This document shows, one piece after another, positions 33,400 through 58,824 of a stretch of DNA of 64,000 nucleotides. A model generated the notes under the pieces. It did no database searches. It worked only from the letters and a program-made list of their open reading frames with translations, and was not told where the DNA came from. Each line of letters begins with the position of its first letter. Positions within the stretch are counted from its first letter, which is position 1. The position numbers and the translations under genes were made by a program. Source of the DNA: an uncultured Acidobacteriota bacterium (GTDB lineage Bacteria; Acidobacteriota; UBA6911); contig CAVRJA010000010.1 in the NCBI GenBank assembly GCA_963721405.1, forward strand, positions 78,393 through 142,392, in the 5' to 3' direction.

Positions 33400-34055
<656 letters not shown>

Positions 34056-34206
34056 TATAAATCAATAAGTTACAAAAAGATCCCCAAAGAGTAAAACTCA
34101 GAATCTGCATTTGGGTACCACAGGGGTACCACCGTGAGGCATTTGGCTCCCCATCCCAAAATCCGGCCTCGTGCGGGTTGCCTCCGGTCATCCGGGAGCG
34201 GAATTA

Positions 34207-40605: not shown

Positions 40606-41259
40606 ATGCACAAGACTAAGCGTGTCGCGATATATGCCCGGGTGAGCACGGACGGTCAGGACGAGTCGATGCAGCTGACTGCCCTGCGTCAGATGGTCAC
40701 TCAGCGAGCGTGGGAACTGAAGGCCGAGTACGTGGACCACGGCGTGTCGAGCCGGGACGTCCGGCCGCAGCTTGAGAAGCTGATGCGCGATGCACACCAG
40801 CGGAAATTCGACGTGGTGGCGGTCTGGAAGTTTGACCGATTCGCAAGGAGTACGCGGGAACTTGTCTTTGCATTGGAGCAGTTTCAGGCCTTGGGAATCG
40901 ATTTCGTATCGGTGACCCAGGCAGTTGACACCTCGGGGCCGATGGGGAAGCTGGTGTTTTCGGTGCTGGCGGCGATCGCCGAGTTCGAGCGGGAGTTGAT
41001 CAGGGAACGAGTTGTCGCCGGAATGAAGGAGGCACAGCGACGCGGGAAGCACTGTGGCCGACCCGCGATGGAATTCGACGTTGAGAAGGCTGCGGAGTTG
41101 CGACAATCGGGCCTCTCGTGGAGCAAGCTGGCAGCGCAGACGGGGGTGCCGATTCATTTGCTGAGGACTCGGCTGACAAACATCAGATCAAACGGCAACA
41201 GCGACGGCCACGGTCAAATCGACGTTACGGTAGCAGGGACGATGGAGGTGCAAGCATGA
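40606..41259 (+). CDS. Serine recombinase (resolvase/invertase)
   Basis: YARVST, RPQL, DRFARS, AEFERELIRER, GRP, C-terminal HTH. Confidence 0.93.
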   Translation: MHKTKRVAIYARVSTDGQDESMQLTALRQMVTQRAWELKAEYVDHGVSSRDVRPQLEKLMRDAHQRKFDVVAVWKFDRFARSTRELVFALEQFQALGIDFVSVTQAVDTSGPMGKLVFSVLAAIAEFERELIRERVVAGMKEAQRRGKHCGRPAMEFDVEKAAELRQSGLSWSKLAAQTGVPIHLLRTRLTNIRSNGNSDGHGQIDVTVAGTMEVQA

Positions 41260-47134: not shown

Positions 47135-47797
47135 ATGCGCTACAGGGTACTTGGCACCGAAATCCGCTCTAAGAACACGGCAAAGACAATGGCTGAAGCC
47201 TCCCAGGCACTCACGCATTGGCTCCTCGCAAGGCCCCGCGTGAGCAGAGCCCTAGACTTTGGCTGCGGAAAGCTCCGATACACACCGTATATCGCCCGCA
47301 CGAGCGTCGCTCTGGGCATTGTTGACTCTCAGATACAGCTGGAACGATCTCAGATGATCGCCGGCCGCCTCACAAGCGTCAGCAGATACGCGCGGAGGCG
47401 CTGGCCGCGGTGCAGGATCCATTCAGTTGAGCAATTCTGGGCAGGCGTACAAGAACGCTATGATTTCGTACTCTGTGCGAACGTACTGTCGGCTATCCCG
47501 TCTCGCAAGGCTCGGACACGATCACTTCGGGCAATCCAGGCTTGCCTTCGACCAGAAGGGGAGTGTCTTATCGTCAACCAACACAGCAACTCCTATTTCC
47601 GCGAAGCTCGAGGCCGACCGGAGGCGATTGCACATTTGGATGGTCGGATACTGCCGTCAATCTGGGGAGGCTGCTACTACGGTATTCTGGATCGTGACAA
47701 GTGCACTCATATCTTGAGGTCGCTTGGCTTCATGGTGTTGGAAACATGGGTCGAGCATCAATCCACATTCGTTTTAGTTGCAAGAGGGCCAAGATGA
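47135..47797 (+). CDS. Class I SAM-dependent methyltransferase
   Basis: ALDFGCGKLRY (motif I), YDFVLCANVLSAIP, LRPEG. Confidence 0.8.
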   Translation: MRYRVLGTEIRSKNTAKTMAEASQALTHWLLARPRVSRALDFGCGKLRYTPYIARTSVALGIVDSQIQLERSQMIAGRLTSVSRYARRRWPRCRIHSVEQFWAGVQERYDFVLCANVLSAIPSRKARTRSLRAIQACLRPEGECLIVNQHSNSYFREARGRPEAIAHLDGRILPSIWGGCYYGILDRDKCTHILRSLGFMVLETWVEHQSTFVLVARGPR

Positions 47798-48486
47798 AAA
47801 TCATAGGACAACCCGAAAGCTATTCCGACATGCTCGAAAGAATTTTCTCAACGACCCTCGTTAGCGGTCTCCTCTGCACGGTGATTTTGGCCCAGGCATC
47901 CCCAGCCTTTCATGCCCTCATCCGGAGCGTTTCCACACAAGCCGATATTGGACCAATAAAAAACATAAAAGCCTTCTATATTCTAATTCCTCTTGGAGTC
48001 GCGTTTTTCACACGGGTTATTCTCCTGCACGACAAACTTTCCGACATACTTCGATTGCGTCACAGGTTTGACACACGCTACATCCTTGCCCCGATGGCGG
48101 GAAATGCGGGCCTCAAACTAACGGCGAAGTTCAAAAAACGATTGGAGGCTGAACGCCACCCTGCGATGTACGCAGTCTTTTATAAATATGCGGGTTTCAA
48201 AAATCCGGCGATCGATGCGCAACTTGTGCGGACCGCGTTGGATAGCTGGGGTTGGTTTTGGGCAGCACTCGAAGCGGCCTTCCTTCTTTTCGTTACTCTT
48301 TTGGTGCTGGCATTAATCAGGCAGTGGTATCCACTCTTACTGGTTAGCGTCGGAATTTTACTTCTTGTCTTTTTCATGAGATATCAATGGTCGGTGTGTC
48401 GCGACGGCGCGCGACAGCAAGTGAATGCAATACTCCAAGATCCTGCTCGCACAGATGAAGTGCGTACCTATTTTGCCAAATTGTGA
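47794..48486 (+). CDS. Four-TM membrane protein translationally coupled to the methyltransferase
   Basis: ATGA overlap; two pairs of hydrophobic helices separated by a soluble segment. Confidence 0.75.
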   Translation: MKIIGQPESYSDMLERIFSTTLVSGLLCTVILAQASPAFHALIRSVSTQADIGPIKNIKAFYILIPLGVAFFTRVILLHDKLSDILRLRHRFDTRYILAPMAGNAGLKLTAKFKKRLEAERHPAMYAVFYKYAGFKNPAIDAQLVRTALDSWGWFWAALEAAFLLFVTLLVLALIRQWYPLLLVSVGILLLVFFMRYQWSVCRDGARQQVNAILQDPARTDEVRTYFAKL

Positions 48487-49227
48487 GAGTCGGCGCATGA
48501 CGAGCCAATGAACGTCGCAGTTGGTTTGGCCGCCCGCTTGTTGTCGGCTGATCAGCAAATTGGCAGGAGCACAATCGAGTCAATGACTGAAGCGAAAAAG
48601 CAAACTGAACAGCACATCATAGACGAAAATGGCGAGCAGTTACTCCGCAGCAGGTTACCCAGCCACTGGAAACTGCGCCCATATCGACCGGACTACGGCT
48701 TGGATTTTGCATTAGAAGTCTTCGCTCCCCCTAAGGATCCAACCGCAAAGTTCCGCGAATACGAAACGCTAGGTGAGCACATTTTCATTCAACTCAAAAG
48801 TGCGCAAACCACCAAAGCATATCCGCTGAAACTCTATCGTCGCGACAATGTGGAGAAGGCTCGTGAGGTGTTTGACAAGAAGGAACTCGCTGGCACTCTA
48901 AACACCATCAGATATTCGCTTGAGACATCAGAGTTGGTGACGATTGAACGTATGGGAGTGGGTGTACCCGTTTTGCTCGTTATTGCGGATCTCTCCACTC
49001 GTCGATGCCATTTCGTTTGCCTGAACGACTATATCGACAAGATTTTGATCCCTCGCTACAGTGACTACTCTGCAAAAAGCAGCTGTACCCTTTACGTCCC
49101 CGTCGCGAACGAGATCGGTGGCCCCGTCTCTGGTCTCGATGGCCTGCGTTGGTACGCAAAGCGGCCCAAATTCAGAGCTCCTGACACGCCCGCAAAAATC
49201 CCAGGGATTTGCCCGTTTTTTCGGACA

Positions 49228-49667
49228 TGGGTGCGGACCAAAAACTGTCCGCTTTTTTCTTCCGGCGATGATCTGAAAAGGTGGGACGGGGCAGGATTAT
49301 TAGAGCCAAACTCCCTCGAAACCTCCGACTGAACCTGTTTAACGTGCCGTTTTGTTTTGGGCTGGACTGCGGACGAAAAACTGTCCGCTTTTTGCATAAG
49401 CAGGTATCTGCGGGTTGCCGGAAACTCGTGCCGGACGTGGTTGTTGCTGCAATCTGGGGTGTTGCAAAAGGATGTAATTTCGCTCTGAAAAAGTTGATCT
49501 GGGTGCGGACCAAAAACTGTCCGCTTTTTGCCTTAGCAGGGACTCTGAGATTGCCCGAAACCCGCGCCAGACGTGGTTTACGACGCAATCTGAGGTGTTA
49601 CAAGAAAATGTAATTTTGCTCTGAAAAAGTCCGAATCTGGGTGCGGACCAAAAACTGTCCGCTTTTT
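49228..49667 (+). repeat. Four regularly spaced palindromic repeats in the IS left end
   Basis: TGCGGAC(C/G)AAAAACTGTCCGCTTTTT at 49232, 49368, 49504, 49642 (period 136, 136, 138). Confidence 0.9.
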
Positions 49668-49708: not shown

Positions 49709-51982
49709 ATGACAGCTCAACAGCGTAGACTTCTTGAGCTCCCGGGCTCGCCGCCAGGAACTGTTGTCCTCAACGATCGTGTCAGCATCCGCACCGAGGG
49801 TTCCCGGCGGGCAGTATTCCTGCAAGGGCTTGTTCTCATGCACTATGACGTGAATGACCATGCCGCTGAAGAGTGCGCAATGGTGACGTTGTTCGAAGCG
49901 GGCTACGCGGATCAGAACGACATCGCCCACGCCTTCGGGTGTACGCCGCGAACCCTGAGACGATACCAAGAACGGATCGAGTCCGGCGGTCTCTTGGCTC
50001 TTGGGCGACCTCGTGGCCGTCCCTCGCAGAAAGGTTCTCCACCAATTGAGGGGCGGGATCGGACGATACTCCACCTGAAAGAACGAGGTCTCAGCAATCG
50101 TGCGATTGCCGTAAAGCTCGGTTTTTCGGAGAAAGCAGTCCGGAAGCGGTTGCGCCGACTTGGGTGGAAGCCTCAACCGGCGATCTGCCTGCCGTTTGAG
50201 ACAATGACGGACGATGCCACCCAGCCGATGACAGCGCCGTCAGACACAACTGGCGTGTCCGCCATGGCCGCCGCCCCAATCGCCGATGACAAAACAACGG
50301 ATGAGCCCCTCCCGGTCAGCTTGGACCGCAATCCGCTCGATCGTTCATTGGATCGCTTGTTGGCGGCTATGGGCAAGCTTGAGGATGCCGCTCCCCTATT
50401 TGCCCGGACCGAGAACCTTCCGGGAGCGGGTGTCCTGCTGGCAGTACCGGCTCTGGTGCATAGCGGCGTGCTCACAGCGGCGCGCAAGATCTATAGCTCC
50501 CTTGGCCCGGCATTCTATGGATTGAGGACAACAATCGTCACCTCGATTCTGCTTGCGCTGCTCCGTATCCCACGACCGGAAGCACTCAAGGAACATTCTC
50601 CCGGAGATCTCGGCCGCATTGTCGGGTTGGATCGAATGCTCGAGGTGAAAACCCTGCGACGCAAGTTCTCACGACTGGCTTCTATGAAGAGAAGCCGGGA
50701 ATTTGGGATTGAACTGGCTCGTCACCGCGTTGCCGAGCAGGGCCGAATGATGGGGTTTCTCTATGTCGATGGGCATGTTCGCGCCTACCACGGAAAGCGC
50801 ATAATTCCGAAAGCCTACGTGACCCGGAGACGCATCGCCGCTCCTGGCACCACTGACTACTGGATCAACGACCAGAAGGGAGACCCACTCTTCGTGGTCA
50901 CTGCGGAAGCCAATGCGGCCATGACCCGAATGCTTGTGCCCATCCTCAAACAGGTCCGCAATCTGATCGGTCCGCGCCGGCGACTGACAGTCGTGTTCGA
51001 TCGAGGCGGCTGGTCCCCGCGGCTCTTCCTGACCATCCTCGAGATGCGGTTTGACATCCTGACCTACCGCAAGGGTCGTTTCCGCAAAATCTCTGAGAAA
51101 AGATTCATCCTCCGGAAGGCAAAATTCCATGGCCGACGCCTGGAGTACTTGCTGCACGATCAAGCGGTCCGGTTCCTGAAAGGAAAGCTCCGGCTCCGGC
51201 AAGTGACCCGTCTAACGGAAACCGGCCATCAAACCGCGGTTCTGACGAGTCGCTGGAAACTGCGTGATATTGTCGTGGCCTATCGCATGTTCGATCGTTG
51301 GCGGCAGGAGAATTTCTTTAAGTACATGCGACAGGAGTTCCTGATCGACGCCCTCACCGACTACGAAGCTGAGCCCGACGATCCAAATCGATCCGTTCCC
51401 AATCCGATGCGAAAGGTTGTCGACAAAGAACTCCGCAAGGCCCGCAGCCACTTGGCGAAACTACAGGAGCAATACGGTTCGGCCGCACAGGACTATTTGA
51501 AAGGGCGAACCGCTACAATGCGTGCCTTTACGGCCGCCGAAAGAGAAATCCAGCGCGAGCTCGATGAAGCGTCCGCCGAAATCGCACGCCTCATCAAACG
51601 GCAGAAATCCCTGCCGACTCGGATTCCATTATCTGAGTCGCCAGAGGGGGAGAAGGCGATGCAGCTGTCGGTCGAAAGGAAACACCTGAGCAACATTCTC
51701 AAGATGGTGGCCTATCAAATCGAAGGGAGTCTTGTAGAGCTATTGCGGCCCGTCTATCCGAGGACCGAGGCCGAGGGCCGCACGTTGATCCAAACTGCGC
51801 TGCGAAGCGCTGCCACGATCGAACCGACTAACGAAGAACTTCGGGTAATCCTATCGCCGCTGAGCTCGCCGCATCGGTCGAGGGCAATCGCCGCAGTCTG
51901 CAAAGAGCTCAATAAGGCATCGGACAGGTTTCCAGGCACAAAGCTCCGGCTCCGCTTCGCGGTGGCCGAGTCAACAATTTGA
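49709..51982 (+). CDS. Large DDE transposase with N-terminal HTH domains
   Basis: YVDGH, VFDRGGWS, RWRQENFFKY catalytic-type motifs; lies within the IRs. Confidence 0.88.
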   Translation: MTAQQRRLLELPGSPPGTVVLNDRVSIRTEGSRRAVFLQGLVLMHYDVNDHAAEECAMVTLFEAGYADQNDIAHAFGCTPRTLRRYQERIESGGLLALGRPRGRPSQKGSPPIEGRDRTILHLKERGLSNRAIAVKLGFSEKAVRKRLRRLGWKPQPAICLPFETMTDDATQPMTAPSDTTGVSAMAAAPIADDKTTDEPLPVSLDRNPLDRSLDRLLAAMGKLEDAAPLFARTENLPGAGVLLAVPALVHSGVLTAARKIYSSLGPAFYGLRTTIVTSILLALLRIPRPEALKEHSPGDLGRIVGLDRMLEVKTLRRKFSRLASMKRSREFGIELARHRVAEQGRMMGFLYVDGHVRAYHGKRIIPKAYVTRRRIAAPGTTDYWINDQKGDPLFVVTAEANAAMTRMLVPILKQVRNLIGPRRRLTVVFDRGGWSPRLFLTILEMRFDILTYRKGRFRKISEKRFILRKAKFHGRRLEYLLHDQAVRFLKGKLRLRQVTRLTETGHQTAVLTSRWKLRDIVVAYRMFDRWRQENFFKYMRQEFLIDALTDYEAEPDDPNRSVPNPMRKVVDKELRKARSHLAKLQEQYGSAAQDYLKGRTATMRAFTAAEREIQRELDEASAEIARLIKRQKSLPTRIPLSESPEGEKAMQLSVERKHLSNILKMVAYQIEGSLVELLRPVYPRTEAEGRTLIQTALRSAATIEPTNEELRVILSPLSSPHRSRAIAAVCKELNKASDRFPGTKLRLRFAVAESTI

Positions 51983-52633: not shown

Positions 52634-53740
52634 TCATTCCTCAATTCTCAGAGTTCCAACACGATTTAGGCAACAACGGAGCTTCTCGAGAGCGCCAAGA
52701 TCTATCTTCCAGACATCCCTGCAACCCTCTGAGTATTGGGCAGAATTATATTCCTTGGGAGTCGAGAGAATGACTCGCACATCTGGATGCATGTAACAGA
52801 ACAATGAGCCTCCCAGTGCCTGCATCTTTGATCCCAACGGAGATAACGTAATCCTGTACCTGTCCGACATCTCTGTATATAGGGCCTCAAGGATTCTGAT
52901 GGTTTCCTTGTAGTCAAAGGTGCTGACCTCGTATTGGCGCCATTCATCGCCGATCTCGTTGATCTTCTTCATCGCGTCGAGACGCCAACGGTTTTCTGCA
53001 AGATGAGGTTCGCCGAGTAACCACACAATTTTCTTTGAAGCGGTTGTCAAGAGTGATGGGTCGACAAAACTTATCACTGCCTTGCTGCGCTCGCCCTTGA
53101 AGCAAGCGAAGAGGATTAAGGAGTCGGGCAGGGGATCTAAGGCGTGCCCTGGATAATCCATGCTCGGCGTTACATCGCCCACACCGCGCTCGAGACCGAG
53201 CAAATCTTCGTTCGCCCACTGTTCAGGATTGCGATCGTACTCTTCCTTGGTCGGGTGATAGGTTGAGGCCTCGGAATAAATGATGCGGACGCAGATATCA
53301 TATTCTAGAAGAACTTTCATACAGCGGAGTATTAGGCGATTCGCGGCTACGCTGAGATCCAGTGTTATACACGGCGGCTTTGCAGGAGCACCACAAATAA
53401 CTAGATCTAGTAGTGCCCGAAGGCGAGAAGGAAAATCTGGAACATCTACCTCAATAGGGTCGACGTGTGGCGAGATCTCACGCAGGTGACCTTCTAGTTG
53501 CTGCAAGTTGATGGCATTATCATCGAGATTTGTTCCGTATTTGAAGTAGGCTGCGCGACGCGTTCTGAATCCTGCTGCTGCCAAGCGACCTGGCAGCTCA
53601 AGGCAGCGCGGCTCGAATCCAAGGGCACAGAGAAATATGTCATCTGGAGATGACGTCACCAGACTCTGGACTTCAAGAGCCTCGATGGCTTCAAGGTCAG
53701 CAACAACATCAGCCAGTTCATAAAAACTAAGCTTTGCCAT
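52634..53740 (-). CDS. Conserved partner of ORC-CDC6-like ATPases (duplicated Rossmann-like fold predicted)
   Basis: ALGFEPR, LDLS, IIYSE..Y, SPLGSKMQALG, P.EY....YSEG; last gene of the four-gene run. Confidence 0.65.
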   Translation of the reverse strand: MAKLSFYELADVVADLEAIEALEVQSLVTSSPDDIFLCALGFEPRCLELPGRLAAAGFRTRRAAYFKYGTNLDDNAINLQQLEGHLREISPHVDPIEVDVPDFPSRLRALLDLVICGAPAKPPCITLDLSVAANRLILRCMKVLLEYDICVRIIYSEASTYHPTKEEYDRNPEQWANEDLLGLERGVGDVTPSMDYPGHALDPLPDSLILFACFKGERSKAVISFVDPSLLTTASKKIVWLLGEPHLAENRWRLDAMKKINEIGDEWRQYEVSTFDYKETIRILEALYTEMSDRYRITLSPLGSKMQALGGSLFCYMHPDVRVILSTPKEYNSAQYSEGCRDVWKIDLGALEKLRCCLNRVGTLRIEE

Positions 53741-53810
53741 GAATTGTCACCCTAGTTGCACTTTTTGGCGCGCTCCGCAGTCTAATCAATTTGTGAAGCG
53801 ACAGTTGAAC

Positions 53811-56333
53811 TCAATGCATTTTAGAAAAAAGCGGCGGCTCTTCCTGTCGATCGGGACGTTTAGGATAACTCTTCCACACCATGTCGCAGGCGCCGCGCGG
53901 ATTGGTGAGTAAGAACTTCAACCAGTCAACAGGCCTTTTGACGGCATCGTTCTTTGCAAGTGCTGCGCCGAATGCTGGCAGAAACACCCGCCGTAGATGC
54001 CAGCGCAATGTAGTAACATTACCGTGACGAGAAAGACCTGGTTCCATTTCTATAAAGATGGCTCTGCGAACCAGCTCTCGGGCGAGCTGCTGTTGTTCTG
54101 TGGTAAGAGTTTCAACGACGCTTCCTGCTCCCTGATCGAGTTCAATTCTAGGGCACTGCGGCGGAGTAGTAGTCGCCCCCTTCTTATGCCATCGCCCATG
54201 TTGGAGGATATTGCGGACGAGAGTTCCAAACGCAGTTACAACCGCATACATCTCCGGACCACATGGAAAATGTCGCTTGATAGCCTCAAAGAGCTCTCTG
54301 GATGCGCTCACGATTGCCTCGTGCTGTATGGTTTTCGCGACGCGATCCGTCGAGTCCCTAGTCACACCACCGCGTTCAAAGATCCTCCGATATACAAGGA
54401 GCAGTGTCGATACGTCTCCGGAACAGACATTGGCAATGCATTCTAAGCCGTGGTATTGATCGAGAATTCTCCCATCGTGTTTTTCGGCTAATGCGCGGCC
54501 GAGAGAGCCTTCGGGCCATTCGGATGGACCGATCAGTGTTTCAGCTCTCCCCTGATAGCCTGCCGCCTTAAGGCGGTTGTCCAGAAGTTCGATTGCAAAT
54601 GCTCTCGCGCGATCCACCTGATCGAAATCGTCAAGGGCGACAAACTCCCGTCCGCAATCTATTTCGATCATCTCGCGGCTAACATCTACCGTTGCGCCAA
54701 GTGCGTCTGTAAGTACAGCACCATATTTCTCGGATGATAGTTTGAAAACGTGGGAGGATCTTCTCTCCCATATCACCTGATTCAGGACCATTTGCACGTC
54801 ATCAGGCAATCGATGCGAAGAAAAATCATCAACGAGAAAAGCAATGCGTGTTTTGCCGAAATACGATATTCGTCGCGCCAAAAGGCTACTAAGGTCTCCC
54901 AGGAAGGAATCGCCCGTACATTTGATCAGGTTGAGCCCACTAAGCATTTGCGAATGGGTCGAAAACATTTCTCCTTCGATTGCTTCTGCGACTTGCACAA
55001 GACGCGACACACCCTGCATCCGAGGACGAGATGAAGGACCGAGAGATTCGAGGATAAATTCACAGATCTCTTTCTCTTGGGAGTCGCCGAGTCCCCAGAA
55101 AGTTGTCCGGTCCTCCCGCGCAGCGATAAGGAAGAGCGTATGGACTATCTCTCGTGCCAAGAGAAGATTGAAATAGTGGACAATCTCCCGTCGAAAGCGC
55201 TGCGCCAGAGCTGCGCTCCGAATCCAGCCGAGCTTGTTTTGGAGATCACTACTGCAGGAAACATAGAATCCGGCGACGCGTAACCGCTCTATATCTGCTG
55301 CGGGTTTGTCGAGGTGTGCCTTGAGGCTTAACCATCTAAAGATAGTGGATTTACCGCATCCTCGTGGACCAGTTACCAGACATGGGTCTGGACCATCGAT
55401 CTTTTCTAATAGTGGGCACGAGAGAGCAAACATGCTCACGAGGAGTCGATCATCGGCAATGTGCTCAGCGGAAATGAACTCGAATGGAGATGTTGGAACG
55501 CCACCCTTCTCCGACTGCCAAGAACTTGCGCGCGTATACGCAAGCTCGAACTGCTGTACGATTTGAAGCGGATCACGAAGGGCTATACTTGGATCATCGT
55601 CGAGCATTGAGCGTAACAGTCGCGCTGCATCAGCGAGAAATCGGCGATCCCTAACTGTCAGCAGCCGTCGCGCGTGCACAGTATTCCAAATGAGAACGAG
55701 ATGATCGACGAAATGGCGATGATCGTCCTTTGGCTTACAAGTCGGTGCGTCCGATGGCTTCATGCTTCCCGTATCGATAATCTTGATTGACCACTGCGGA
55801 AAGAGATCAGCCGGCGCAGGGCGAGCGAGCATCACGTTATCAGCGTGCAGATCATCGTGTCTAAGGCCAACCGCCTGAAGTACTCCCAAGCCAGAGCATA
55901 CGCCCTTCACGTACGCGAGCAAGAACGATGGAGTGACAAGATCTTTCTGATCCTCGATGAAGCGCGTAAGCGTTAGCCCATCGATCCACTCTTCCACAAA
56001 GCAAACAAATTTCTGTTCAGCAAGGGATCCAAAGGTCAGTTCTACGAGCCCGGCGTCGACGAAGTGTGCAAACTCTCGGTACGGCTCAAGAACGGAAGCT
56101 CTCGAAAGCTCCTGCAAATAGGAATGGTGTTGGTAGTCATCGTAGGTACAAAGCTTCATGGCCCTCTTGCGGCCAAATTCATCGCGAATCCGCCAGACCG
56201 CGCCCTTAAAGCCCGCTGCGATTGGTGCTTCAGTGGTATAGGTCTTATTGTTCACAGTGGCGGAAGGTGGCAGGAATTCCGGTCCGAGAAGATGTCGGCG
56301 CTGCTCTTCAGTAAGTTCAATACGTTTTGGCAT
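53811..56333 (-). CDS. Protein kinase fused to an ORC-CDC6-like P-loop ATPase
   Basis: Kinase: AGFKGAVW, AMK, HDDLHADN, DTG. ATPase: Walker A GPRGCGKS, Walker B FLVDD. Confidence 0.8.
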   Translation of the reverse strand: MPKRIELTEEQRRHLLGPEFLPPSATVNNKTYTTEAPIAAGFKGAVWRIRDEFGRKRAMKLCTYDDYQHHSYLQELSRASVLEPYREFAHFVDAGLVELTFGSLAEQKFVCFVEEWIDGLTLTRFIEDQKDLVTPSFLLAYVKGVCSGLGVLQAVGLRHDDLHADNVMLARPAPADLFPQWSIKIIDTGSMKPSDAPTCKPKDDHRHFVDHLVLIWNTVHARRLLTVRDRRFLADAARLLRSMLDDDPSIALRDPLQIVQQFELAYTRASSWQSEKGGVPTSPFEFISAEHIADDRLLVSMFALSCPLLEKIDGPDPCLVTGPRGCGKSTIFRWLSLKAHLDKPAADIERLRVAGFYVSCSSDLQNKLGWIRSAALAQRFRREIVHYFNLLLAREIVHTLFLIAAREDRTTFWGLGDSQEKEICEFILESLGPSSRPRMQGVSRLVQVAEAIEGEMFSTHSQMLSGLNLIKCTGDSFLGDLSSLLARRISYFGKTRIAFLVDDFSSHRLPDDVQMVLNQVIWERRSSHVFKLSSEKYGAVLTDALGATVDVSREMIEIDCGREFVALDDFDQVDRARAFAIELLDNRLKAAGYQGRAETLIGPSEWPEGSLGRALAEKHDGRILDQYHGLECIANVCSGDVSTLLLVYRRIFERGGVTRDSTDRVAKTIQHEAIVSASRELFEAIKRHFPCGPEMYAVVTAFGTLVRNILQHGRWHKKGATTTPPQCPRIELDQGAGSVVETLTTEQQQLARELVRRAIFIEMEPGLSRHGNVTTLRWHLRRVFLPAFGAALAKNDAVKRPVDWLKFLLTNPRGACDMVWKSYPKRPDRQEEPPLFSKMH

Positions 56334-56353
56334 TCGCAGATCCCCCGGTAACT

Positions 56354-57175
56354 TTATTGCTGGTCCATTTCATTAAGGATGTCCGCCGCCTCAGGTGAGT
56401 TTGGAGCAAGTGACCTAAGGAATCGGTCCAATCGATCCCTGAGCGTTCTTGAAAGGCGCGTGGCAAATAGGACATGCTCCTCAAAAGCCTCGAATGCGAC
56501 AGGCGCCACTGCCCGAACGATCTGAGCCATCACTTCTGCGTATTGGCGAATCTCATACTGAGCTTGTCTATCGAGTCTGAGCCGGAGGAAGTGGAATAGA
56601 TTGTGCAGATCGATTTGCCAATACCACTGAGTGTAGCTGCTCAGAGGGAGGTTTATCCTCGCCAGCTCGCGCGCAACGTCGTCGTGCAATAGCTCATCAT
56701 AACTGGCGTAAGCAGACGCCTGATCATGCCTAAAAATATCAAGCACCCTCTCTTGAATTTCCCGGCGTAGTTCCTCGGCGCCGCGTCCTTGCTTATTACG
56801 CTTACTCTGCTTCTTGATTTGATCGATCGCCGGCAAATAAAACTCACTTGGAATCACGCTGTAGCGACCAGAGACCTCGTTTAGCCTCGCCGTTCGATGC
56901 CGAACCCATTGACGGGCGACGAAGATGGGCATTTTGGCATGAAATGTAATGATCACCTGCTCGAACGGCGACGTATGAAGATTGCGCATCAAATAATGGA
57001 TTAGCGCTGCATCCTCTCTCACACCTTTCGTTCCAGCACCATATGAGACACGGGCGGCTGCAACGATCCTCGCATCCCCGCCGAGATAATCTACGAGGCG
57101 CACGAAACCATGATCGAGGACAGGGAACTCTTTGTCGATAATGGCGTCCGCTTCAGGAACGCTTATCCGTGGCAT
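56354..57175 (-). CDS. thyX: FAD-dependent thymidylate synthase
   Basis: AARVSY, HTSPFEQ, RQWVRHRTARLNEVSGRY (RHRx7S), RELARINLP, AQYEIR. Confidence 0.93.
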   Translation of the reverse strand: MPRISVPEADAIIDKEFPVLDHGFVRLVDYLGGDARIVAAARVSYGAGTKGVREDAALIHYLMRNLHTSPFEQVIITFHAKMPIFVARQWVRHRTARLNEVSGRYSVIPSEFYLPAIDQIKKQSKRNKQGRGAEELRREIQERVLDIFRHDQASAYASYDELLHDDVARELARINLPLSSYTQWYWQIDLHNLFHFLRLRLDRQAQYEIRQYAEVMAQIVRAVAPVAFEAFEEHVLFATRLSRTLRDRLDRFLRSLAPNSPEAADILNEMDQQ

Positions 57176-57250
57176 TGAACGCTCCGATCTCCTGGAAATT
57201 CAGGCGCGAGGAGGACTCCGACCAGGCTAATTTTGGGGCACGAAGAGTTT

Positions 57251-58405
57251 TCATACATGCCCGTCCTCCTGCTTTAACCAAATCGACCAGTCATATTTTG
57301 ACCACGATTTGTACTTATCATCCCAGGACAACCTTGATAGCAGCCAGCGTTCGCGGAAGTACTCGAAAATGGCCTGTTCAGATTGGTGATACCACAGCAA
57401 GCGCGAGTGTGCGCCACGAAGGAATGCCTGCGTGTTTCGAGCGAGTGGGATAACAAAGACTTCTCGATGTATCCCATGATAAACCAAATCGCTCGACAGA
57501 CCGAGGGCGGGGAGACACTTCTTGATGATCTCTCGTCGGTTGCGGAATCCTGTTCCCCATCGTGCCTGCTTTGCAGTGGGTGCGCAATGTTTCTCAGCGA
57601 AGATTGAAATCGAACTATAGAGACCGTTTGAAAAGTGGAACTCCCCAGAACCTTTGGTGAAGCCAACGCTGCGATAAAGGAGCCGTTGGTCTAACTTGAG
57701 TCTATTGTAGATTGAAGAACGTCCCAAAGCAGAGGTAGTCGTGATCATTGCAAGGCGTCCGTCATGTACCCTTCGTCTGATGAGAGATCGCGCGCCTCCA
57801 TATTTTTTCTTAAAGGCATCACGCACTGTATCGCTCGTGGCCAGCATTGCCACCAGCTTTCCGCACAACAGATAGGAGTAGGGCGGCACGGCTCCCAAGA
57901 CAAAAGCATCCATTACGTTTCGTAACCGCTTCTTTCGATCAGAGTGTGTCCAACCGACCCATTCATCGCGCGGCCGCAAGCTATAGACCGGGTCTCCTAA
58001 ACCGACCAGACCTATGAGCTTTCCATTGAATTCATCGATTACCAAAAATCGCAATCGTCTTCCGTAACCGGAAGAAATGGGAATACTCCAATGAAGACTT
58101 GCATACCGAAAGAGGAGTTCCTCCTCCGATTCAGGATGAACTTCTACGAGGCGAGGATGGATCTTCGATGGTACGATTTCACTTCCCGATGCAACATATT
58201 GAAGTAGCTGCCCCTCCTTCCGATAAAGGCCGTCCTTCGCTCGCTCGATTCGATGTCTGACAGACGTTTCATGAAGCTGGCGCATTCTCTCTTTCGAGAA
58301 ATCCTCTGGGGCAACAATCACTCCGTTTCGGACGCAGAAGCCCTGAGCAATAAGAGATCGAATAACTTGATCTCGCAGGTCTTTCCGCCCGACTCCACGG
58401 CTCAC
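57251..58405 (-). CDS. druA: DruA-like (DUF4338) protein
   Basis: WSIPISSGYGRRLRFLV.D..NGKLIG...LGDPV..L..RD.WVGW, GAVPPY..LL.GKLVA, TTTSALGRSSIYNRL; GTG start inferred (track start 58618). Confidence 0.82.
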   Translation of the reverse strand: MSRGVGRKDLRDQVIRSLIAQGFCVRNGVIVAPEDFSKERMRQLHETSVRHRIERAKDGLYRKEGQLLQYVASGSEIVPSKIHPRLVEVHPESEEELLFRYASLHWSIPISSGYGRRLRFLVIDEFNGKLIGLVGLGDPVYSLRPRDEWVGWTHSDRKKRLRNVMDAFVLGAVPPYSYLLCGKLVAMLATSDTVRDAFKKKYGGARSLIRRRVHDGRLAMITTTSALGRSSIYNRLKLDQRLLYRSVGFTKGSGEFHFSNGLYSSISIFAEKHCAPTAKQARWGTGFRNRREIIKKCLPALGLSSDLVYHGIHREVFVIPLARNTQAFLRGAHSRLLWYHQSEQAIFEYFRERWLLSRLSWDDKYKSWSKYDWSIWLKQEDGHV

Positions 58406-58824
58406 TGATTTATCTCCACGGTCTGCAAAAGATCCTCGATTTCCTCCTGGCAATCCAACGCAGATTTGACCAGGGACGCTGCTAAACATTGACTCTCGGC
58501 CGAGATCGTCTGGGGCGGTTGGCGGACGAAATGCACGGCTAGGCTGCGGCCTTCCGCTGCGACGCTCGCAAACCACGGGAGCATTCCATAATTGGTGAAG
58601 CCAGGCAAATCTCAGCAACCGCGGGAGATCCGCTTTCCTTCCGCGGCTTTACCCTGCTTCGGAACCTAATGCTGCTTGAAAACCCACATTTTACCACTAA
58701 TTCCATAAGACGTGCGAGCTCAGTACGTCACACGCAGTTTGGTGTCGACCTGACCAAATTTGCACATTGGATGTCTTAACGGCGCCATAACATGAAGTAA
58801 TGCCAATTCCTGCGAACCGAAGAT

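Follow-up and report, generated by a model that had tools for sequence, protein, structure and literature searches.

In Druantia type I, a full-length DruA (DUF4338) protein, the signature of that system, is encoded together with DruB, DruC, DruD and DruE; Druantia type II reportedly has a methylase, DruM, in the place of DruA. BREX (bacteriophage exclusion) type 2, or Pgl, and MADS (methylation-associated defence system; mad1–mad8) are modification-based immune systems in which a Ser/Thr kinase and P-loop ATPases stand beside a DNA methyltransferase. The PglW protein of BREX type 2 is described as a kinase joined to a winged helix–turn–helix domain and to a STAND/ORC-Cdc6-like ATPase that lacks activity (10.1101/2025.10.09.681413). 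Can1 and the SAVED proteins, of type III CRISPR and CBASS (cyclic oligonucleotide-based antiphage signalling system), have a single chain that includes a pair of CARF-like Rossmann domains. The present report concerns a locus at positions 52634–58405 (minus strand) of a 64 000-nucleotide stretch of DNA, here called the window, from an uncultured Acidobacteriota bacterium (GenBank assembly GCA_963721405.1, contig CAVRJA010000010.1). It encodes, in transcription order, DruA, the thymidylate synthase ThyX, an 840-residue protein in which a kinase-like domain precedes an ORC/Cdc6-like AAA+ ATPase (the kinase-ATPase), and a 368-residue protein that its structural model shows as a tandem CARF sensor standing alone. 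Three of these genes (DruA, kinase-ATPase and CARF; the trio) form the conserved core of a rare, horizontally spread module. We assign a probability of about 0.5 to the reading that the locus belongs to a family of modules combining a DNA-modifying enzyme with a kinase/ORC-Cdc6-like AAA+ ATPase and a tandem-CARF sensor, and that these act in defence in the manner of restriction–modification (R-M), BREX or MADS systems, with DruA marking self.

The module shares with Druantia type I its full-length DruA (PADLOC DruA1 profile, 2.7e-116) but lacks DruB, DruC, DruD and DruE, its partners being the kinase-ATPase and the tandem CARF protein. PglW is the closest architectural parallel to the kinase-ATPase; however, the window module comprises only three or four genes and has no PglX, PglY or PglZ, its kinase matches PglW weakly, and the MAD3/4 and MAD7/8 nuclease modules, as given in the MADS report (PMC13662399), are absent. 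It further differs from BREX type 2 and MADS in the intact Walker motifs of its ATPase, in its CARF partner and in having DruA instead of a methylase; for the full gene sets of the two systems only weak kinase and P-loop matches were obtained, with no further conserved neighbours. Unlike Can1 and SAVED proteins, the 368-residue chain has no nuclease or effector domain, the output coming from a separate or fused kinase-ATPase, and neither a CD-NTase nor Cas10 was found in the genome. As regards classical type II R-M, which pairs a methyltransferase with a cognate endonuclease, type-II-like methyltransferases occur in a sister clade of the module; no nuclease domain was recognized in any partner, although one may have escaped recognition.

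At the level of protein families, the 840- and 368-residue proteins match the CARF6 profiles 'CARF_STK_AAA' and 'CARF_CARF_CARF' of PADLOC-DB, so that the division into kinase-ATPase and CARF proteins has an existing catalogue entry (CARF6--CARF_STK_AAA). The profile names suggest an origin in the 2020 CARF census of Makarova et al. These profiles represent protein families and not a defined system, and a link to DruA, to methyltransferases or to ThyX is absent from the literature searched. The same literature, which did not include the 2020 CARF census and supplements, contains no description of the module with either DruA or a methylase and with or without ThyX. The statement in the first-pass annotation of the window that it knew of no described system with this combination holds within that scope, and the PADLOC profiles, a comparison that it recommended, gave matches to catalogued families but no full gene set of Druantia type I, BREX type 2 or MADS.

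Related loci (numbered with the prefix L) were collected from genomes, for which both the kinase-ATPase and the CARF family served as queries, and from metagenomes, for which the CARF family was used; tblastn with the four window proteins followed. A locus was considered to have full context if its CARF protein showed at least 38% identity and if the CARF gene had no less than 3.9 kb of sequence on its upstream side and no less than 1.3 kb on its downstream side. This yielded 22 loci, comprising ten from genomes, 11 from metagenomes and the window; the five genome loci found with the kinase-ATPase sit among the ten and were counted once, and three loci with the same identity values (L044, L045 and L081) may be copies. 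DruA, kinase-ATPase and CARF occur together in 22/22 of these loci (5/5 of those found with the kinase-ATPase, 10/10 from genomes and 11/11 from metagenomes), with the kinase-ATPase directly upstream of CARF. DruA is visible in 13 further, shorter loci, the remaining short loci ending before it could appear. Its gene is found in four placements (on the same strand, either upstream or downstream; downstream but on the opposite strand; and upstream in divergent orientation), and the linkage of the trio therefore survives rearrangement. Across five loci and the window only the three trio genes are common to all, and there is no common element backbone. The proposal of a four-gene operon consequently stands in so far as the module recurs, the exact four-gene order being repeated in L037 and L062, but not as regards a four-gene core, as ThyX is present in 5/22 loci.

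Hosts of the trio belong to Planctomycetota, Chloroflexota, Acidobacteriota, Gemmatimonadota and Latescibacterota and, among archaea, to Bathyarchaeota and Methanomicrobia, which amounts to at least seven phyla; with the sister-clade scan included, Myxococcota are added. In the host's own lineage, a search of 60 relatives for the CARF gene detected it in none (0/60), and a 400-genome sample of the phylum gave weak matches only, in four genomes. At E ≤ 1e-30, 365 representatives out of 1.84 billion belong to the kinase-ATPase family.

Distant relatives of the CARF protein (25–28% identity) likewise follow a kinase plus ORC-CDC6-like gene, and the third gene at these loci is a DNA methyltransferase. 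In 23 of 25 sister-clade loci the gene immediately upstream of the kinase-ATPase encodes a type-II-like DNA methyltransferase, the other two loci being cut. Elsewhere, the kinase-ATPase/CARF pair has a C5 methylase beside it (L075) or, in an archaeal outgroup, a D12 methylase at a distance of two genes upstream (L195). In a FastTree tree of 49 kinase-ATPases, which leaves out truncated or frame-split genes (L009, L014, L173, L178, L181, L182, L183 and L185) and apparent duplicates (L045, L055 and L081), 24 rows linked to DruA and 22 linked to a methylase fall into separate clades, both supported at 100%. The exchange of DruA for a methylase between these clades is the same as that said to distinguish the two Druantia types. 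The methylase-bearing sister version suggests an R-M-like immune system that has so far not been described. The view of DruA as a nucleic-acid modifier, put forward in the first-pass annotation, gains indirect support from this swap and from the GNAT/Mom-like fold discussed below. Two sister-type or distant loci also contain long-form DruA proteins. Upstream of the ThyX-methylase-kinase-CARF operon of L167, a co-directional gene array (L213, 1304–13138) encodes a 670-residue long-form DruA, a 1565-residue HerA/FtsK-like P-loop protein and three uncharacterized proteins, and may represent a second DruA-containing system. In L079 (9141–14586) a distant kinase-ATPase and CARF pair is flanked by a 684-residue long-form DruA (PADLOC 5e-180) and two GHKL (HATPase_c_3) ATPases.

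ThyX (56354–57175, minus strand; 273 residues, second in transcription order) is an unambiguous member of its family, matching Pfam Thy1 (PF02511; 1e-55, 189 bits against a cut-off of 24.8), TIGR02170 (206 bits, well over its cut-off at 88) and a solved ThyX structure (PDB entry 6j61, E 6e-81), and the ThyX motif RHR-x7-S is visible in its translation. It is present in five of the 22 full-context DruA-type loci (the window, L037, L062, L011 and L017) and absent from 17. L037 and L062 have the window order DruA-ThyX-kinase-CARF and ThyX proteins 79% and 75% identical to that of the window, respectively, while L011 and L017 show other arrangements and about 50% identity. Among the methylase-type loci it occurs in 3/23 (L167, L170 and L179), where its end touches or overlaps the adjacent methylase gene, and is absent from 20/23. 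ThyX is thus an optional, repeatedly recruited extra and not part of the system core. Its absence from 17/22 and 20/23 loci means that it cannot be an obligatory ligand maker or the centre of the system, contrary to the earlier picture of a nucleotide-centred module with ThyX as a possible ligand source; the logic of the module looks modification-based instead. A decayed four-gene form is seen in L065 (1159–2368), where part of DruA, a fragment of ThyX and one third of CARF (C-terminal) remain and the kinase-ATPase is missing.

It could be argued that ThyX is neighbouring metabolic cargo on mobile DNA and that the four-gene operon is a local accident inherited by a few close relatives. Consistent with this, ThyX is absent from 41 of the 49 rows of the kinase-ATPase tree, its sequence is canonical (60–72% identical to the 80 closest genomic ThyX proteins, none of which has the module nearby), and in a quick ThyX tree the module genes do not form one clade but have at least two origins, those of the window, L037 and L062 falling inside a clade with six module-free ThyX genes. 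Nevertheless, the eight rows that do carry ThyX require at least five gains or losses and are found in both clades, at four or more separate places, and ThyX always adjoins the modifier gene, be it DruA or methylase. The intergenic gaps of 20–75 bp in the window, L037 and L062 and the abutting or overlapping coding ends in L170, L179 and L167 also argue for more than chance proximity. Furthermore, in four of six genomes checked (the window genome, Lacipirellula limnantheis, Citreicoccus inhibens and a Myxococcales metagenome-assembled genome, MAG) ThyA is present and the module copy is the sole ThyX, so that it is an extra enzyme. In the window genome ThyA is encoded on contig C14, and the possibility that this ThyX is the only thymidylate synthase of the host can be set aside. 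The other two genomes, both MAGs, have no detectable ThyA and contain other, tandem-domain ThyX genes. Such genes are present in the host of L011; the ThyX of L011 was considered as a Dehalococcoidia housekeeping copy, and this was rejected as it shows no match to the ThyX of two related genomes (E 1e-5) and no synteny. Recruitment of a thymidylate synthase into operons of this kind is not described in the literature searched on ThyX and defence systems. On balance, simple cargo is possible but doubtful.

The kinase-ATPase (53811–56333, minus strand; 840 residues, third in transcription order) contains a protein-kinase-like domain at approximately residues 30–270 (55524–56246) and an ORC/Cdc6-like AAA+ ATPase region at residues 283–840 (53814–55487). 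The kinase domain matches PK_Tyr_Ser-Thr above its cut-off (29.7 versus 23.1 bits, 5.3e-07) and Pkinase below it (25.8 versus 31.7 bits). Lys60, Glu75, His159, Asp161, Asn166 and Asp187 of this domain are invariant in 24 homologues. In PADLOC the kinase resembles those of methylation-linked systems, with matches to PD-T4-6 (1e-09), mad6 (2e-08) and PglW (1.2e-3); the protein also matches mad8 (3.8e-4), and a sister-clade kinase-ATPase matches mad6 at 1.7e-14. Residues 283–598 of the ATPase region correspond to the ORC-CDC6-like family PF24389 (2.3e-36, 126 bits against a cut-off of 27), and a second stretch matches positions 406–567 of the same profile. The Walker A motif GPRGCGKS (Gly322–Lys328) and the Walker B residues Asp502 and Asp503 are also invariant in the 24 homologues. 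Together with the RHR-x7-S motif of ThyX, these residues bear out the earlier observation that the ThyX, kinase and Walker motifs are intact.

The 368-residue protein (52634–53740, minus strand; fourth in transcription order) belongs to no Pfam family above cut-off. It matches the CARF6 models of PADLOC (1.3e-14 and 1.7e-13), and the Pfam family HFX_2341_N is matched by 19 of 42 members of its family (best 8.7e-06), the window protein itself scoring 12.9 bits against a cut-off of 30. A search of PDB sequences with the CARF family sequence profile gave no matches. The AlphaFold model, calculated from an alignment of the 42 family members, has a mean pLDDT (predicted local distance difference test) score of 92.4 and consists of two Rossmann-like domains. 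A VIA-align scan of 48,161 PDB representatives identified the double-CARF nuclease Can1 (6sce_A) as the best match to this model (Z = 14.0, root-mean-square deviation 3.6, 237 residues aligned), followed by single CARF domains of Can2, Csm6, Csa3 and Card1 (Z = 10–10.7) and of Cam1 (Z ≥ 9). SAVED domains align over about 200 residues with Z = 7.6–8.6, and unrelated Rossmann folds score about 7. No effector domain was found in the chain by the model or the scan, in keeping with a sensor only. The scan supersedes a Foldseek search of the PDB, in which the CARF model had matched tandem universal stress protein (USP) and KCC C-terminal domains at TM scores of 0.2–0.3. The structure predictions recommended in the first-pass annotation thus assign a CARF fold to this protein and a GNAT fold to DruA; what had been termed a conserved partner is indeed conserved and can now be modelled as a tandem CARF sensor.

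A close relationship between this protein and the kinase-ATPase is indicated by the PADLOC profile PDLC01925 (CARF6--CARF_STK_AAA; 1187 positions), which spans both, the 840-residue protein matching positions 42–692 and the 368-residue protein positions 873–1012. Natural fusions are also found. In the 1219-residue protein P0219 the kinase-ATPase profile covers residues 24–820 and the CARF profile residues 868–1210 (hhalign probability for the CARF part 99.95%, E 5e-38), and P0259 (1244 residues) shows the same fusion. These fusions imply that the kinase-ATPase and CARF act as a functional unit. Both come from the representative library; the sister-clade CARF alignment, used to look for fused relatives of greater length, retrieved none, which is weak evidence. 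Prediction of a complex between CARF and residues 283–840 of the kinase-ATPase gave a score of 0.02 and was used neither way.

DruA (57251–58405, minus strand; longest open reading frame to 58618, first in transcription order) matches PF14236 with 404 bits against a cut-off of 27 (3.8e-121). GTG at 58405 is its likely start, being preceded 7 nt upstream by GGAGA and giving a product of 384 residues, compared with 373–395 in homologues; the other in-frame starts are ATG at 58489 and TTG at 58618. DUF4338 is termed a GNAT domain in PMC10853773, and a function beyond this fold assignment was not found in the literature searched. The AlphaFold2 model of DruA (pLDDT 86) indeed shows a GNAT fold, all 50 structural matches listed being GNAT-fold proteins (Z = 9.4–7.7). 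The tied best matches include YhbS (Z = 9.4 over 149 aligned residues) and phage Mu Mom (8bv8_B; Z = 9.3 over 167), and the alignment with Mom is the longest among the five matches with Z ≥ 8.8. Mom modifies adenine in DNA. The likeness seen between the two is one of fold; their sequences are about 11% identical, and ordinary protein or small-molecule acetyltransferases are tied with Mom as matches; for this reason we infer DNA as the substrate of DruA and do not read it from the fold. A partial DruA/DUF4338 domain (2e-48) is also found in a 383-residue open reading frame of an IS66-type insertion sequence of this genome, where it overlaps the gene for a 485-residue IS66-family DDE transposase. 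This 2.4 kb element (unit L211:4353-6774) has perfect 15-bp terminal inverted repeats and is present in at least seven identical copies, on contigs C2, C3 (three copies), C4, C13 and C14.

The fold of DruA also allows a second interpretation, namely that it is the toxic effector of an abortive-infection module and acetylates aminoacyl-tRNA or protein, with the kinase-ATPase and CARF as its sensor or regulator and with no marking of DNA. GNAT toxins of toxin–antitoxin pairs do acetylate aminoacyl-tRNA or proteins, the tied best matches of the DruA model include ordinary acetyltransferases, a 'bacterial toxin' (7byy) is matched with Z = 8.1, and CARF proteins usually switch on effectors. In addition, DUF4338 takes the same N-terminal slot of DndF as HEPN, REase and kinase domains, according to PMC10853773. 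However, the slot taken by DruA in the module is that of a DNA methyltransferase in 23/25 sister loci, and a methyltransferase is no abortive effector. DruA is also often transcribed separately from or opposite to its partners, as is the M gene of an R-M pair. A toxic role for DruA is thus unlikely compared with a modifying one.

In the window, the open reading frame list and translations show four co-oriented genes without internal stops, separated in transcription order by 75, 20 and 70 bp, as described in the first-pass annotation. Its report of a locally lower GC content is likewise correct (0.51–0.53 across 52–59 kb, compared with 0.55–0.65 over much of the window). The description of the region as a tRNA-targeted island is not confirmed: the tRNA-Arg gene (33979–34055) is 18.6 kb from the four-gene locus, a search for att-like repeats found no repeat of at least 14 nt of the tRNA-Arg region (33979–34075) elsewhere in the window, and no integrase was identified in the window. 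Mobile-DNA genes are present in the vicinity, namely a resolvase (40606–41259) and a transposase (49709–51982). Upstream of the transposase, 47135–49332 encodes an S-adenosylmethionine-dependent methyltransferase of the small-molecule type (1.4e-08), a 261-residue open reading frame and a DUF4365 protein (7.9e-08). The flanking open reading frames match no Pfam family and differ from locus to locus, and the number of sites in a promoter and terminator scan did not exceed that in shuffled sequence.

This setting raises the question of whether the module serves immunity at all or instead exerts epigenetic or replication control for an integrative mobile element, by means of an initiator-type ORC/Cdc6-like ATPase with a kinase, a DNA modifier and a nucleotide sensor that couples replication of the element to the state of the cell. 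The ATPase is ORC/Cdc6-like and the loci lie in mobile regions with transposase and resolvase genes, as such a role would predict. Downstream of the trio, a Latescibacterota MAG (L003, 11100–16500) and a Gemmatimonadota MAG (L004, 11100–15900) encode proteins that are 80–90% identical, which suggests a larger mobile element common to both phyla and could be cited in the same sense. However, only the three module genes are common to the five loci and the window, with no shared backbone of an element; the kinase is nearest to defence-system kinases in PADLOC; and the module occurs in many phyla with differing flanks. A role in replication control is accordingly improbable. That the locus is a degenerate or partial Druantia type I is very improbable in spite of the strong match to Druantia DruA profiles, since the other three proteins match no DruB–DruE in PADLOC, the DruE helicase marker DUF1998/MZB has only two matches in the genome, on contigs C14 and C4 and none on C10, no DruE-like gene lies beside DruA in related loci, and DruA is paired with the kinase-ATPase and CARF in 22/22 loci, in agreement with the first-pass annotation, which had set the locus apart from Druantia type I.

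Several observations weigh against the reading of the locus as a modification-based defence module. The defence role is deduced from genomic context and domain types, and neither a nuclease nor a classical restriction effector is recognizable in any partner by Pfam or PADLOC, although an unrecognized one is possible. The module contains no nucleotide cyclase and neither Cas10 nor SMODS was found in the genome, so that the CARF ligand must come from elsewhere; alternatively, the CARF domain might be structural only. The kinase-ATPase is split over at least two reading frames at several loci (L005/L009, L006/L014, L035, L067, L173, L178, L182 and L185), which may reflect decay or assembly error. 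For one CARF homologue (L057, 1408–2520; 44% identity) the kinase-ATPase is missing from the 1.4 kb upstream, the sole such exception seen. L167 contains a long DruA-like gene in addition to a methyltransferase, so DruA and methyltransferase are not strictly exclusive. DruA-domain open reading frames are carried by the IS66-type element described above, and the DruA fold therefore has non-defence uses. To these may be added the tied acetyltransferase matches of DruA and, for ThyX, the canonical sequence and the absence from most loci.

If the modification-based reading is nevertheless adopted, DruA would mark the DNA of the host with a non-methyl group, as the methyltransferase would do with its own mark in the sister clade, and the ORC/Cdc6-like ATPase would read DNA that lacks the mark. 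The tandem CARF protein, as one unit with the ATPase, would bind a small ligand, either a nucleotide or one derived from RNA, and thereby gate the response. Nucleic-acid breakdown products are one possibility by analogy with RtcR-type CARF proteins, for which they are proposed as ligands in PMC11090510. The N-terminal kinase would constitute the output, phosphorylating host or phage proteins such that infection is stopped. ThyX would serve as an optional booster, being a second thymidylate synthase that is structurally unrelated to ThyA; our preferred guess is that it would keep dTTP (thymidine triphosphate) available when thymine-replacing phages suppress synthesis of the monophosphate, dTMP, by the host. 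Such phages eliminate dTTP and make hm-dUMP (hydroxymethyl-dUMP), according to PMC8989533. In its most specific form this scheme would make DruA a Mom-like non-methyl DNA writer that replaces the methyltransferase in a conserved reader machine (ORC/Cdc6-like ATPase, CARF gate and kinase output), giving nuclease-free R-M-type immunity in which ThyX counters phages with hydroxymethyluracil or deoxyuridine (hmU/dU) in their DNA; this form is tentative and, taken as a whole, rather unlikely.

The occurrence of DruA and methyltransferases as alternative partners of the kinase-ATPase/CARF pair leads to the testable hypothesis that DruA marks DNA. If this is true, the DruA of Druantia would gain a function, namely non-methyl marking of DNA. 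The module itself represents a compact three-gene candidate immune system, with a CARF sensor that has no known cyclase and an apparent output kinase rather than a nuclease. Finally, the repeated recruitment of ThyX suggests that dTTP supply and immunity are connected.

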